Of a DNA stretch of 64,000 nucleotides, positions 51,813 to 57,981 are shown piece after piece. Where the stretch lies: contig JAWOID010000063.1 in the NCBI GenBank assembly GCA_046484865.1, positions 41,784-105,783 on the forward strand, in the 5' to 3' direction. A program made the translations under genes and the position numbers. Position 1 is the first letter of the stretch; each line of letters opens with the position of its first letter. Under the pieces are notes generated by a model. The model did no database searches. It was not told where the DNA came from and was given only the letters and a program-made list of their open reading frames with translations. The stretch comes from Candidatus Krumholzibacteriia bacterium. Its GTDB lineage: Bacteria; Krumholzibacteriota; Krumholzibacteriia; LZORAL124-64-63.

Positions 51813-52094
51813 ATGTCAAGCGACACTTCTTCCAGGTGCCCCCACTGCGGTCAGACCTTGCTGCCCTGGCGCAGTCCCGACATGACCAGCTGGGGCGGCA
51901 ACATCCAGCTCGTGTGCTTCAACGACGAGTGCCCCTACTTCCAGGAGGGGTGGGAGTGGATGTTGTCCCAGTACAACGTCAAGGCCTCGTACCGCCACCG
52001 CCTCGATCCGCAGACCGGCGAGTCGGGCCCGCTGGCGGTCTGGAACAAGAACGCGCTCAAGGACAAGATCATGGCGGGTGGACAGGACGGCTAG
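51813..52094 (+). CDS. Small zinc-finger-like protein (CPHC…CFNDEC)
   Basis: GAGGA RBS; CPHC and VCFNDECPY Cys pairs. Confidence 0.8.
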   Translation: MSSDTSSRCPHCGQTLLPWRSPDMTSWGGNIQLVCFNDECPYFQEGWEWMLSQYNVKASYRHRLDPQTGESGPLAVWNKNALKDKIMAGGQDG

Positions 52095-52142
52095 CCGGCC
52101 GTCCGTCCGCAGCCGCCATGCACATCACGACGGGAGAATCCC

Positions 52143-53018
52143 ATGTCCGAAGCTTCCCGCCCTCGGGACATCTCCGCGCCCGGTGCAGCCGGCGATGATC
52201 GCGACGACGCCAGCCCGATCGATCGCCTCAAGGAGAAGATCCTCTCCGACTACGAGCGCATGAGCCTCGACGACGGTTTCGCGTTCGGGTGCCACCCCGG
52301 CGTGCCCTGTTTCAACGAGTGCTGCGGCGACGTCAACATCTTCCTGACGCCGTACGACGTCCTGCGCATGAAGAACGCGCTGGGCATGGGCTCGGCGGAG
52401 TTCCTCGAGCGCTACACCCAGATCCCGATCGAGCGCAATCAGGCGTTCCCGGTGGTGATGCTCAAGCTCGACGACGCCGCCGAGGGCAAGCCGTGCCAGC
52501 TCGTCGGCGACAGGGGCTGCTCCATCTACAACGACCGGCCCTGGCCCTGCCGGATGTACCCTCTGGGCCTGGCCAGTCCCAAGGACAAGGACGCCAAGGA
52601 CTTCTACTTCCTCATGAAGGAAGACGTCTGCCGCGGCTTCGAGGAGAGCGGCCGCTGGACGGTCCGCGAATGGCTCGAGGACCAGGGCATCGGTCCCTAC
52701 GACGAGTTCGGCCGGCTGTTCAAGGAGATCACGCTCCACGACTACTTCGGCACGGGTCGCAAGCTGACGCCGGAGCGGTTGGAACTGTTCTACATGGCCT
52801 GTTACGACCTGGACAGCTTCCGCCGGTTCGTCTTCCGCAGCACCTTCCTCAAGCGCTTCGATCTCGAACCGGATCTGATCGAGCGCATCCGGGACGACGA
52901 CGAGGAACTGCTACGGTTCGCCTTCCGCTGGCTGAAACTGGCGCTCTTCGGCGAGCCCACGGTGAAGATCCGGCCCGACGCCATGCCGCCGGCGGCCATG
53001 GCGCCCAAGGACGCCTGA
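52143..53018 (+). CDS. YkgJ family cysteine-cluster (CxxCxxCC) protein
   Basis: CHPGVPCFNECC, C…GCSIY..RP..CRMYP and CRG motifs. Confidence 0.88.
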   Translation: MSEASRPRDISAPGAAGDDRDDASPIDRLKEKILSDYERMSLDDGFAFGCHPGVPCFNECCGDVNIFLTPYDVLRMKNALGMGSAEFLERYTQIPIERNQAFPVVMLKLDDAAEGKPCQLVGDRGCSIYNDRPWPCRMYPLGLASPKDKDAKDFYFLMKEDVCRGFEESGRWTVREWLEDQGIGPYDEFGRLFKEITLHDYFGTGRKLTPERLELFYMACYDLDSFRRFVFRSTFLKRFDLEPDLIERIRDDDEELLRFAFRWLKLALFGEPTVKIRPDAMPPAAMAPKDA

Positions 53019-53031
53019 GAACGGCCGCTCG

Positions 53032-53604
53032 ATGACCGACGGGATCCGCATACGCACGGCCAGGATGAACGACGTGCCCGCGCTGCTGCACTACGCGCAC
53101 GCCATGTTCTCCGAGCGACTGCCCACGCTCTTCGACGTCGATCCCCTGCCTGATCTGCGCGCCGAGGAAGCCTTCGTCCGGCCGTACGTGGAGCGGCCCG
53201 GGTGGGTACTGTTCCTGGCCCTCGAAGGCCGGCGTGTCGTCGGACTGCTGAGCTTCAAACGTCACGACCATCCGCAGCTCTGTCACGGCGGCGAACTGGG
53301 CATCTCGCTGCTCGACGGCTGGCGCGGGCGCGGCGTCGGCACGCGCCTGCTGCAGGCAGTCGAGGAATGGGCGCCGCGCCACCAACTGCGGCGTCTCGAG
53401 TTGCAGGTGTTCGAGAACAACACCGGCGCCATCCGCCTCTACGAGCGGCTCGGCTACGAGCACGAAGGCCGGCGCCGGGGCGCCGTCAAGGTGCAGGGCC
53501 GCTATCTCGACATCCTGCTCATGGTGAAACGGATCGACCCGGTCGCGGCCCGCATGCAGCCGCGCAGCCGGCGTCGTCCTGCCGATCATCCGAAGAAGAC
53601 GTAG
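53032..53604 (+). CDS. GNAT family N-acetyltransferase (YhhY/AaaT-like)
   Basis: ELGISLLDGWRGRGVGTRLL and LELQVFENNTGAIRLYERLGY..EG. Confidence 0.9.
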   Translation: MTDGIRIRTARMNDVPALLHYAHAMFSERLPTLFDVDPLPDLRAEEAFVRPYVERPGWVLFLALEGRRVVGLLSFKRHDHPQLCHGGELGISLLDGWRGRGVGTRLLQAVEEWAPRHQLRRLELQVFENNTGAIRLYERLGYEHEGRRRGAVKVQGRYLDILLMVKRIDPVAARMQPRSRRRPADHPKKT

Positions 53605-55214: not shown

Positions 55215-55397
55215 ATGATGACCGACGACCGTACCAAGCACGACCTGCATCCGCTGGACCTGGAGGAGGTGGAGCAGCGCCTGGAGGTGAGTCCGCTGCT
55301 CGTCGCAGGCGCCGACGACCCGCTCGTCGGGGGCGACACCACGTGCTGTTCGTGCAAGCTGCCGCCTCGCCCGGAGGATCCGGACGTCGGGGAGTAG
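55215..55397 (+). CDS. 60-aa putative RiPP/signal precursor peptide
   Basis: Strong RBS GGAGGAGG; MMTDDRTKHDLHPLDLEEVEQRLEVSPLLVAGADDPLVGGDTTCCSCKLPPRPEDPDVGE; sits directly upstream of the acyltransferase and protease genes. Confidence 0.7.
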   Translation: MMTDDRTKHDLHPLDLEEVEQRLEVSPLLVAGADDPLVGGDTTCCSCKLPPRPEDPDVGE

Positions 55398-55565
55398 CCG
55401 CTCGCCGGAGCGTCGCCGGCCGTGCCTCGCCCCCGGGTGGCGGCCGGCGGCGCCGCCGGTGCCGGAGCCGGACGGCTCCACGCCCGCGGGCGGAGCCCCG
55501 CCGCGCGCGGCGGGGAGGCGAGCCGGACCCGCCACGATCACCTGACGCCGCCAGGGAGGGCGCCG

Positions 55566-56825
55566 ATGAATCAGCAGACCGGTGCGCGAACGTCGCGAAC
55601 GTTGCGAACGTCGCGAACGTCGCGCTCGTCGCCGGGCGCGCAGCCGGGATCGTCCCCGGCGCCGGCGATCGAGGTGACGACGGATCGGCCGGGGCTCGAG
55701 CCGGGGGCTCTCGTCGCCGGAGCGAGTCGCCACTGGGAACTGTGGCTGCTGCGGTCGCTGCTGCCGGAGGCCGGCCCGGCCGACCTGGCGGAGATGCGGG
55801 CGCGGCGTCGTCGTTTCGCCGACCACGAGCGAGCCGCCCTGGCGCGGCTGCTGGCCGGTGACACCGCGCCGCTGCACCCCGGCCGCCGCTTCGTGGCCGG
55901 CCTGCCGGACCTGCTGCGGCGTGGCCTCGTCGTGACGATGCACGTCGGCCCGTACCAGTTCCTGCCGGAGCCATTCCTTACCGCCGGGGTGTCCCCTGGC
56001 ATCCTGCTGGACGAGGAGGCGGAGCGTCGGCTGCGACCGCGCGCCGAGTTCATGATCCGGCGTCTGTGCCTGCGCGCGCAGCCGGAGTGGATCGTAGCGA
56101 CGCAGCCGGCAGCCATCCGGCGCATGATGCGGGTGCTACGCGAGGAGCGGCCGTTGCTCGCCTTCCTCGACGGGAACGCCGGCCAGGGCGGCTTCGCGGC
56201 CACGCGCCGCGACGGCATGCCCTATCGTCTGCCGGGACGCGAGATCCGCATGCGCACGGGCCTGGCGCGACTCGTGTGTCGGCTGGAATGCCCGGTGCGC
56301 CCGGTGGTGGTGCGCTGGAGCGCCGAGGGGGCCGTGACCTGGACCGGCGACATCCGCCGCACGTACCGCCGCACCGACGATCCCCGTCAGGTCACCCGCG
56401 AACTTTGCGACTGGGGCTTCGGGGCGGTGCTCGCCGACCCCGCGCAGTGGGGCTACTGGGAGATGATCCGCGCCGCAGCCTCCTGCTTCGCGCCGGTGGC
56501 GCGGCCCGCGGCGGGCTTGCCGGGGGGATTGCATGCGGACTACGAGCGGGCGTTCGCCATCTGCCTGAAGCGCGCTCCGGACTGCGTGCGCGTGCTGCCG
56601 GCCCGCGAGGCCGAGGTGTGGAACGATTCGGTCCTCGTGGATCTGGAGGAGGACCGTTTCTACGCGTCGGAGGGACTCACCTCGGCGGCGCTGGTCAGCA
56701 TCCGGGACGAGCGGCCCACCCTCGCAGCGCTGGCCGAGCGATACGGCGAGGAATGGGTGAGGCGGCACGTGCTGCGCCTCTGCCTGCTGGGGCTCGCTCG
56801 ACTCGGAGGCGGGGCCGGTGGATGA
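55566..56825 (+). CDS. LPLAT (lipid A lauroyltransferase-like) acyltransferase with possible C-terminal RRE/PqqD-like domain
   Basis: GGGAGGG RBS; VVTMHVGPYQ (Hx4 motif), LAFLDGNAG, GLARL…CPVRPV and ADPAQW..W match the LpxL-like layout; extra C-terminal strand-strand-helix region. Confidence 0.7.
   Translation: MNQQTGARTSRTLRTSRTSRSSPGAQPGSSPAPAIEVTTDRPGLEPGALVAGASRHWELWLLRSLLPEAGPADLAEMRARRRRFADHERAALARLLAGDTAPLHPGRRFVAGLPDLLRRGLVVTMHVGPYQFLPEPFLTAGVSPGILLDEEAERRLRPRAEFMIRRLCLRAQPEWIVATQPAAIRRMMRVLREERPLLAFLDGNAGQGGFAATRRDGMPYRLPGREIRMRTGLARLVCRLECPVRPVVVRWSAEGAVTWTGDIRRTYRRTDDPRQVTRELCDWGFGAVLADPAQWGYWEMIRAAASCFAPVARPAAGLPGGLHADYERAFAICLKRAPDCVRVLPAREAEVWNDSVLVDLEEDRFYASEGLTSAALVSIRDERPTLAALAERYGEEWVRRHVLRLCLLGLARLGGGAGG
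55586..55621 (+). repeat. 9-bp tandem repeat x4 (GCGAACGTY) in the acyltransferase N-terminus
   Basis: Directly visible; encodes RTS/RTL units. Confidence 0.85.
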
Positions 56826-57981
56826 CCCGGTGGATCTGCCGGATGCCATGCGTCTGGTGCCGCACCCGCGTGGCGCCTGGCTGCTGCAGGCGCGCGGGCG
56901 GTGCTTCCTGGTCCCACCGGAGCTGGGAAGGAGCCTGGCCCGCGCGGCCGGGGGCGCCGCCCCCGCCACCACCGCCGCGCCCGCCATCTCCCCCGTCATC
57001 CCGTCTCCGGCCTCCCCTGACGACCCGCACCATGCCCGGCGGATCCTGGCCGCCGTCGAGGCCGCCGTCAGTGCCGCGCCGCGCCGCCGCCGCCGTACCG
57101 CCGGCCCCTGGCTGCGCGTGCCGCTCGTGCCGGCCGCGCTCGTGCAGCGCGTGTCGGCTCGGCTGGCGCCGCTGGCGGCCTGGCCCGCCCTCGCGGCTCA
57201 GACGGGAATGGGGGTCGCCGGTTACGTGCTGGGCACCGTCGTGCCGCTGGACGCCACCCTGCCGGCGGACGGCGGGGCGCCGTTGGCCGTCGCGACGCTG
57301 GTCTTCCTGATGCTGGCCCTGTGGCACGAGCTCGGTCATGCGGCGGCTTTGCGGCGCGAGGGCTACCCGCCCGGGCGCATCGGCGCGGGCTTGCTGCTGA
57401 TCGTACCGGTCCTCTACTGCGACGTGACCCCGGTGGCCGCCCTGCCGCGCTCCGGACGGCTGCGCGTGGACCTGGCCGGCGTGGCGTTCCAGCTCGCTGC
57501 GGGAGGCCTGGTCTGCCTGGCTGCGCGCGGCTTGCAGCTCGAGGCCCTGCGCTGGGCGGCGGCCGCGGCGCTGGCAGCCGTGGCCTGGAGCCTGCTGCCT
57601 TTCCTGCGGACCGACGGGCACTGGATCGTGGCCGACCTTCTGGACCACCACGCGCTCGACCGGCCCCTGAGCCCGGAGCGGACGGCCGGCGCCCGCCCGC
57701 CCGCGGCGCTGCGCCGCCGCGCGGGAGCCCTGGTGGCGTACCGCCTGCTCCATCTCGCGGTCGTCGGCGCCGTGCTCGGCGTCCTGCCCCTGCGCATCGC
57801 CCGGCACCTGCCGCTCGACGCGATCGCCGGGAAGCTGCCCGGCCGTCCGGACGTCGCCGTTCCGGTCCTGCGCGGCGTCCTCCTGCTGGCGGCTGCGCTC
57901 CTCGTCGGCCGGTATCTGCGGCGGGGCACACGTCTGATCAGGGCCGCCCTCAGCGATCTGCGTACCGCGCTCGGTCGCTGA
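56818..57981 (+). CDS. M50 family (site-2 protease-like) membrane zinc metalloprotease, peptide-processing type
   Basis: LWHELGH within a TM segment; GAGLLLIVPVLYCDV, RLRVDLAG and SLLPFLRTDG (NxxPxxxxDG equivalent); GTG start overlaps the acyltransferase stop. Confidence 0.8.
   Translation: MDDPVDLPDAMRLVPHPRGAWLLQARGRCFLVPPELGRSLARAAGGAAPATTAAPAISPVIPSPASPDDPHHARRILAAVEAAVSAAPRRRRRTAGPWLRVPLVPAALVQRVSARLAPLAAWPALAAQTGMGVAGYVLGTVVPLDATLPADGGAPLAVATLVFLMLALWHELGHAAALRREGYPPGRIGAGLLLIVPVLYCDVTPVAALPRSGRLRVDLAGVAFQLAAGGLVCLAARGLQLEALRWAAAAALAAVAWSLLPFLRTDGHWIVADLLDHHALDRPLSPERTAGARPPAALRRRAGALVAYRLLHLAVVGAVLGVLPLRIARHLPLDAIAGKLPGRPDVAVPVLRGVLLLAAALLVGRYLRRGTRLIRAALSDLRTALGR

Follow-up and report, generated by a model that had tools for sequence, protein, structure and literature searches.

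The subject of this analysis is a three-gene locus in a 64,000-nt stretch of Candidatus Krumholzibacteriia DNA (the window: assembly GCA_046484865.1, contig JAWOID010000063.1, positions 41,784 to 105,783 of the forward strand). Its plus strand encodes, in order, a 60-aa peptide, a 419-aa protein in which an acyltransferase domain of the lysophospholipid acyltransferase (LPLAT) type is followed by a winged-helix domain, and a membrane metalloprotease (Table 1). We give slightly better than an even chance to the reading that this is a cassette of the type responsible for peptides synthesized ribosomally and modified post-translationally (RiPPs), with leader-guided acylation of the peptide by the LPLAT and then removal of the leader by the protease. 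What is directly observed is how the genes are ordered, how the proteins fold, which residues are conserved, and that the genes occur together in two different genomic contexts.

Table 1. Features of the cassette, in window coordinates.
Feature	Position	Strand	Details
Precursor peptide gene (P0190)	55215..55397	+	60 aa; also on record as a called protein
Conserved leader motif	55245..55301	+	Window reads LHPLDLEEVEQRLEVSPLL; alignments A3, A7
Core motif CCSCK (C44-K48)	55344..55358	+	C45 invariant across all classes aligned
LPLAT-type acyltransferase with C-terminal domain like a RiPP recognition element (RRE) (P0001)	55566..56825	+	419 aa
9-bp tandem repeat CGCGAACGT x 5.3	55585..55632	+	Gives rise to the RTSRT repeats within residues 1-52, which are disordered
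LPLAT (PatA/LpxM/LpxL-like) catalytic domain, residues about 55-300	55728..56465	+	Foldseek, hhalign, PF03279
Motif H126-V-G-P-Y-Q131	55941..55958	+	Aligns with H-x4-D/E motif of LpxL paralogs
Asp202 of F-L-D-G-N block (block 3)	56169..56171	+	Candidate charge-relay partner of His126
C-terminal RRE-like winged-helix domain, residues 318-419	56517..56822	+	Helix, four strands, three helices, final strand
M50/site-2-protease-like membrane metalloprotease	56818..57981	+	387 aa; GTG start overlaps enzyme stop codon

The enzyme gene most likely starts at ATG 55566, since this has a GGGAGG six bases upstream and its 419-aa product is on record; a longer version beginning at GTG 55422 was rejected, having support neither from homologs nor from the recorded gene call. 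The strings on which a first-pass annotation of the DNA had relied all lie within this plus-strand open reading frame (ORF), which ends at 56825: HVGPYQ (residues 126-131), ADPAQWGYW (290-298), and the C-terminal stretch EVWNDSVLVDLEEDRFYASEGL...RLCLLGL, also given as EVWNDS...RLCLLGL.

A word-indexed search (8,000 scored candidates) found 39 enzyme homologs at E <= 0.001, which are unnamed or are called just “hypothetical” or “lauroyl/myristoyl acyltransferase”; their alignment (A1) is the basis of all counts out of 39 below. A scan of one genome per species yielded 36 related loci, whose titles nearly all read Candidatus Krumholzibacteriia or Krumholzibacteriota. Among 201 sampled genomes of the phylum, full-length strong matches to the enzyme (E < 1e-90) are found in 71 of the 86 belonging to the window's own family, with a contig-end fragment in one more, and in none of the 114 from the other eight families. 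Six of these 114 have weak matches (E 5e-6 to 6e-4) to the LPLAT part only; the proteins matched are LpxL paralogs of the ordinary kind. Neither the enzyme nor the precursor peptide is represented by a model in NCBIfam (June 2026).

The acyltransferase and its C-terminal extension

The first-pass annotation had taken the N-terminal part of the protein for an LPLAT, and this is borne out. When the full-length AlphaFold2 model (mean predicted local distance difference test, pLDDT, 86.1) was searched with Foldseek, there were 14 matches at E <= 0.001; the 13 listed, with template modeling (TM) scores by target of 0.51-0.66, are either PatA (11 chains; E 9.5e-9, about 1e-8 overall, TM by target 0.57-0.66) or LpxM (2 chains; E 2.5e-6). 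The same genome encodes three ordinary Lip_A_acyltrans (LpxL-type) paralogs above cut-off, and hhalign of A1 against an alignment of these (A4) gives a probability of 97.1% (E 5e-11, 222 columns). Against PF03279 itself the window enzyme reaches just E 0.054 and 13.1-13.4 bits, below the gathering threshold of 22.3; homology to this family holds despite the missed threshold because of the hhalign result. PF03279 is matched by 34 of the 39 homologs at E <= 1 (best 1e-9), PF01553 by 19, and the NCBIfam phosphatidylinositol-mannoside acyltransferase model by 21. A PDB sequence-profile search with the full-length A1 produced chance matches only (E >= 0.25). The domain ends at ADPAQWGYW, and no transmembrane segment is predicted in the enzyme.

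Upstream of this domain, residues 1-52 are disordered in the full-length model (pLDDT < 50) and include the RTSRT repeats. Many homologs have at the same position a conserved basic Ser/Arg/Gly motif (about SRSGxSRSSGPxRR). The repeat or basic motif could serve in membrane contact or as an RNA-level element.

In the hhalign alignment of A1 with A4, the paralogs' H-Y-G-N-W-D/E motifs have their His opposite H126 and their Asp/Glu opposite Q131. Within A1 the His is present in 38 of 39 sequences, the Gly in 39, the Pro in 38, and the Tyr in 36; the +5 position is Q in 32, K in 2, P in 2, and R, W, or S in one each, and is never D or E. In seven divergent members the residue after H-x-G-P-Y is A, S, V, P, or T. 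Asp202 is invariant (39/39), as is LDGN in the seven divergent members, and its F-L-D-G-N block is aligned by hhalign with an L-D-Q block of the LpxL paralogs. In PatA, according to the part of the report drawn on here (PMC4792965), the partner of the catalytic His is a block-3 carboxylate, E200, and the +5 Asp is structural. The conservation of His126 and of the block-3 Asp202, on the pattern of PatA, makes an active enzyme probable. The first-pass annotation had seen in HVGPYQ, in place of the usual Hx4D/E, a hint of altered acceptor chemistry. The missing acid is real, and is missing from the sequences of the whole family; the altered chemistry is a weak inference, since PatA (on the same partial source) uses the block-3 carboxylate and the family keeps D202. 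By itself, the lack of the +5 acid argues neither for a dead enzyme nor for a new acceptor chemistry.

Beyond W298, the end of the typical LPLAT, the protein continues for 121 residues to G419, much as first proposed (about 120). The extension is aligned in 39/39 homologs, with eight invariant residues (W352, F365, G370, L386, L389, W397, R404, and L408); its best-conserved stretch is the last helix, H-x-LRLCLLG. These residues, and a confident fold both in the full-length model and for the domain alone, mark it as more than a chance extension. The interval originally singled out, 56580-56825, corresponds to residues 339-419 plus the stop codon, and leaves the first helix of the domain (about 320-336) outside.

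The domain was also modeled separately, as residues 312-419 with a 34-row alignment (A2) built from related loci (pLDDT 89.7, predicted TM score 0.82). In its own numbering this model has helices at 9-25, 62-71, 75-82, and 84-96, and strands at 30-34, 38-41, 45-48, 53-56, and 100-104; the full-length model shows the same elements. An antiparallel beta-sheet followed by three helices, the arrangement by which RREs are recognized, is thus present in the models. The top Foldseek rows for the domain alone include TbiB1 with its leader at rank 2 (E 0.38) and LynD at ranks 9 and 14. In a table of solved structures compared with the domain, the values are TigE 6.9, the PbtF RRE (8t19) 6.8, TbtB 6.7, MibB 6.6, BmdC oxidase 6.4, LynD 6.3, TbiB1 6.1, MccB 5.9, ThcOx 5.8, Lasso B1 (6jx3) 5.7, MadB 5.5, NisB 5.5, McbB 5.3, PqqD 5.1, and CteB 5.1. 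In the ESM Atlas the first structural neighbor is a PqqD-family cluster (TM 0.67 by query, 0.62 by row, over 91 residues), and a search by features points to MftB chaperones (score 0.77); both are leads only. A profile of the domain run against 1.84 billion representatives matched only 30 proteins at E <= 0.001. Each of these is either built like the window enzyme or a gene fragment, and the representatives yielded no relative of the domain that stands alone or is fused to something else.

The same genome has two genuine PqqD-domain genes elsewhere (G000:C16:16221-16421, E 2.4e-19; G000:C27:13357-13500, E 4e-6), and so probably holds other RRE-dependent peptide pathways.

The peptide gene, the protease gene, and their genomic contexts

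There is good ground for the proposal that the LPLAT is tied to a peptide substrate, since the gene immediately upstream encodes a peptide with a conserved leader and a core. Small-ORF homologs of it occupy this position in 31 related loci, with a partial copy in one more, out of the 32 that have upstream DNA; the other four of the 36 begin at or inside the enzyme gene. An alternative start at ATG 55200 is possible for the window's copy, but GGAGGAGGG stands just before 55215. In alignment A3 the peptides share a leader; the linker after it varies, and a core rich in Cys and a tail rich in Pro complete the peptide. The leader consensus is L-x2-LGIxELEERxExSPLL, and a regular expression for the leader is matched by 115 of 120 family members among the matches listed; the peptide family as a whole comprises 131 protein clusters (E <= 0.01), whose names are all uninformative. 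Among these listed matches, 103 of the 115 leader-bearing peptides have a CCxC core, always with K as the next residue (103/103) and with x as T in 59, V in 32, S in 8, L in 3, and N in 1. Minor core classes have CxCxCxC or CCxxxC. Just one Cys is invariant over all the classes aligned, the divergent clade described below included (A7).

Two loci show variations of the peptide gene. In L014 (4205-4663) two tandem precursor genes, with cores GCCGGKC and CIICCYHHKC, precede a single enzyme gene. In L033 (4451-6244), from one Krumholzibacteria metagenome-assembled genome, the cassette looks broken: the leader ORF continues into a 242-aa frame, and the enzyme is spread over several frames. Either frameshifts or assembly errors could account for this.

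Between the peptide and enzyme genes, a strong GC-rich hairpin is predicted at 55412-55452, after the precursor stop codon, without a U tract. Folding of 55395-55700, from the precursor stop into the 5′ end of the enzyme gene, gives a z-score of -0.23, so that an attenuator is unsupported there. A promoter and terminator scan returned no sites.

The M50 gene is directly downstream of the enzyme gene in 35 of the 36 loci; the remaining one ends 417 bases past the enzyme gene. The window's protein has HELGH at residues 170-174 beside a hydrophobic segment, at least five hydrophobic segments in all, and a later LPFLRTDGHW stretch, and so fits the pattern of M50 enzymes, with HExxH in a membrane segment, a subsequent Asp-Gly motif, and multiple transmembrane helices. 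The DG motif presumably supplies the third zinc ligand. Against PF02163 it scores E 3.5e-4 and 20.4 bits (cut-off 27.2). Its N-terminal 100 or so residues (56818-57120), which are cytoplasmic, lie outside both the M50 and the daptide protease models. For the first 110 residues there are weak ESM Atlas leads (TM about 0.5) to radical SAM enzymes, in clusters partly with PqqD; on account of these, a second leader-binding domain here is possible.

The genes flanking the cassette in the window are housekeeping genes: a Gate-domain membrane protein, a GNAT, an inositol monophosphatase, Smr, and folate genes. Synteny within a single family could explain the adjacency of peptide and enzyme, and divergent relatives were sought for this reason. 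A metagenome scan with the protein P0054 alone found nothing; with a three-sequence alignment it found five loci. The enzymes of two of these (L042 and L045) are about 30% identical to the main family; they show the H-L-G-P-Y-S and LDGN blocks, and the C-terminal domain of the main family is present as well. Each is preceded by a small gene with the leader LEKLGIR(Q/E)IHERIEVSPII and the single-Cys core SYICTINF, so that the leader motif is directly upstream in both of the divergent loci with upstream DNA. The neighbors on that side are rpoA and rplQ (named from translations). Because the divergent clade keeps leader and enzyme together beside rpoA/rplQ, their pairing, judged by sequence, is more than inherited synteny.

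On the downstream side, the divergent enzyme is followed in three of three loci (L042, by Pfam; L043 and L044, by eye) by a FabH-like beta-ketoacyl-ACP synthase III (KAS III) gene and an ABC transporter in place of M50. No M50 gene was found within the available DNA of the divergent loci. The transporter of this clade (L042, 2538-7870; L043; L044; L045) has a GldG-like auxiliary domain.

A further candidate, L046, was rejected as a family member: its LPLAT is only 22% identical, and the aligned motif seems to lack the His. This AT-rich metagenome contig (2-2510) encodes a Lip_A_acyltrans protein of 373 aa (E 6e-6), extended at its C-terminus, then a FabA-like dehydratase and a ketosynthase, and may be part of an unrelated lipid or polyene cluster.

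Farther upstream in the window, 51813-53604 on the plus strand encodes a 93-aa Ogr/Delta-type zinc-finger protein, a CxxCxxCC (PF03692) protein, and a GNAT acetyltransferase; tblastn found no match to the latter two in the related loci. ORFs inserted between the cassette genes in L003 and L016 belong to no Pfam family, and so no extra tailoring enzyme was identified there.

Possible functions of the cassette

The cassette fits best under RRE-guided peptide tailoring, as a variant whose catalytic domain has no known earlier connection with RiPPs. It points to a family of peptides, as yet undescribed, that are probably lipid-modified. We infer leader binding, acyl-transfer chemistry, an acceptor site, and a role for the protease, as follows. 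The substrate would be the 60-aa precursor, with its conserved leader and its Cys-rich core CCSCK. The winged-helix domain (residues about 318-419), as modeled, may act as a built-in RRE that holds the leader. The PatA/LpxM-type LPLAT domain would then move an acyl chain from acyl-acyl carrier protein (acyl-ACP) or acyl-CoA to a nucleophile in the core, with His126 as the base, polarized by the block-3 Asp202. A cysteine thiol seems the likeliest acceptor, given that no core residue other than one Cys is shared by all the classes; an alternative acceptor is the Lys of CCxCK. Finally, by analogy with epipeptide and daptide proteases, the translationally coupled M50 metalloprotease would cut off the leader at the membrane, and might also set the lipidated peptide free.

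Several observations weigh against this interpretation. Two strands of the domain model, the fourth and the C-terminal one, have no counterpart in canonical RREs. With the domain alone, Foldseek finds no match in PDB at E <= 0.001, and a PDB profile search with A2 finds none at all; PF05402 (PqqD) is matched by none of the 39 homologs at E <= 1, and when A2 is compared by hhalign with 12 genuine PqqD domains, taken from related genomes, the probability is 1.5%. At the active site, the +5 acid of H-x4-D/E is absent from all 46 sequences examined (39 main-family and 7 divergent), and the corresponding LpxM residue, E127, is treated as catalytic in the title of PDB entry 5knk. As to context, the Gate-domain protein and Smr flanks are also syntenic in the window's family, so that adjacency there is weak evidence by itself; the three FabH-bearing loci (L042, L043, and L044) are close relatives and count as one observation; and the FabH-like gene of the divergent clade could be a housekeeping gene.

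The first-pass annotation had called the extension an RRE/PqqD-like domain. The strands and the three subsequent helices of the models, with the PqqD lead from the ESM Atlas, uphold the first half of this description, and the PF05402 and hhalign results do not bear out the second: going by the models, the domain is RRE-like by fold, not PqqD by sequence, and private to this enzyme. RREs are described as divergent in sequence in the part of a recent survey drawn on here (PMC12710340). The earlier interpretation is therefore partly supported: there is support for its main point, that an RRE-like and putatively leader-binding domain ties the LPLAT to a peptide, and it is overstated as to HVGPYQ.

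A more specific version of leader-guided acylation is a new class of ribosomal lipopeptides, in which the LPLAT with its fused leader-binding domain S-acylates the cysteines of CCxCK, as a bacterial leader-guided counterpart of protein palmitoylation; the peptide, partitioned into the membrane, would be trimmed by the intramembrane M50 protease, and the product would be a core physiological molecule of the lineage and not an accessory antibiotic. This last point is suggested by the presence of the cassette in nearly every sampled genome of one family-level Krumholzibacteriia lineage, between the same housekeeping genes. Taken with all its parts, this version is tentative, and its chances appear distinctly less than even.

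One alternative is that the peptide is modified in some other way, by a non-fatty acyl group or at a residue other than Cys: N-acylation of the Lys of CCxCK, O-acylation of Ser/Thr, or addition of a short or unusual acyl group. The Lys that always follows CCxC in the listed peptides of that class would suit the first of these, and LPLATs normally acylate hydroxyl groups, which T or S would offer at x in 67 of 103 of the same peptides. However, there are classes without Lys (the CxCxCxC-D class, and ICTIN in the divergent clade), x can also be V, L, or N, and the single Cys alone is kept in all classes. We regard modification of this kind as improbable.

It also seems unlikely that the acyl group is placed by the LPLAT on a membrane lipid or glycolipid, in the way of PatA and LpxL. 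In that case the winged helix would have another use, such as ACP docking, dimerization, or regulation, and the small ORF would be no more than a substrate or regulator of M50.

Least probable, and in our view very unlikely, is a catalytically dead LPLAT scaffold in a protein that acts as a chaperone, presenting the precursor to M50 in the manner of stand-alone PqqD-type chaperones: every member has lost the +5 acid, the window enzyme scores only 13 bits against PF03279, and one member has R in place of the His, but H126, G128, P129, D202, G203, N204, LPGR, and RTGLARL vary little or not at all among sequences as little as about 30% identical, a pattern typical of a working active site, and PatA (in the part of the report cited above, PMC4792965) shows that the +5 acid is dispensable given a block-3 carboxylate.

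Should leader-guided acylation by the LPLAT prove correct, it would provide a second, unrelated enzyme superfamily for the lipidation of ribosomal peptides. To our knowledge, the LPLAT superfamily has so far been known to act on lipid and glycolipid acceptors only, and would be extended to peptide acceptors. The compact three-gene system could be tested in a heterologous host, and might be used to lipidate designed peptides. The locus is also a concrete example of an RRE-like domain missed by sequence models and suggested by fold comparison only, and it offers an entry point to a small molecule that is conserved in a phylum without cultured members.

Comparison with known systems

Cassette-encoded membrane HExxH metalloproteases, as found here, are known from several peptide systems: EpeP/YydH of the epipeptides, the daptide HExxH protease, and TglG/TmoG of the pearlins. 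M50 enzymes are established leader or scaffold peptidases in the epipeptide and pearlin pathways, as given in the part of the source used here (PMC10885120). The window protease falls far below the curated cut-offs of the corresponding NCBIfam models (daptide_HExxH, E 2.5e-17, 63.1 bits against 300; YydH/LiaK, E 2e-6, 27.7 bits against 225), and differs from the proteins they describe in the uncovered N-terminal region noted above.

Among RREs of known structure, those of PbtF (8t19), LynD (4v1t), TbiB1 (5v1u), and NisB (4wd9), as well as PqqD (5sxy), have no detectable sequence similarity to the window domain, which adds to them an N-terminal helix, a fourth strand, and a final strand, and which differs from known RREs in its location at the C-terminus of an LPLAT. 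In a 2025 structure-based survey of RREs, acyltransferase, PF03279, and M50 go unmentioned in the main text and one supplement, although other supplements might list such a fusion (PMC12710340).

PatA, the phosphatidylinositol-mannoside (PIM) acyltransferase of Mycolicibacterium smegmatis, and LpxM/LpxL have the same alpha/beta fold as the window enzyme, with the catalytic His in the same block, a block-3 carboxylate, and a P-x-Q-W motif at the end of the domain; on comparison with them, the lack of a predicted transmembrane segment in the window enzyme fits a peripheral membrane enzyme. In contrast to them, the window family never has the +5 acid, the window protein is below the Pfam cut-off (13 against 22.3 bits), there is an additional C-terminal winged-helix domain of 120 residues, and the gene lies between those for a leader-type peptide and an M50 protease rather than among lipid A or PIM genes.

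In proposed outcome, there is a parallel with the GNATs of RiPP lipopeptides (selidamides, lipolanthines, goadvionins, and lipoavitides), in which a ribosomal peptide is likewise fatty-acylated under the guidance of its leader. A 2026 paper, in the part drawn on here, names GNATs only for these four groups and the aphotorhaptins (PMC13647313), and in a search of the full-text literature, with subscription journals not covered, no LPLAT-type, lipid A acyltransferase, or PF03279 enzyme tied to a RiPP was found. The GNATs belong to a superfamily unrelated to the LPLAT of the window enzyme, and the two also differ in the likely target: GNATs N-acylate Lys, Orn, or the N-terminus, whereas in the peptides of the window family Cys is the only universally kept core residue.

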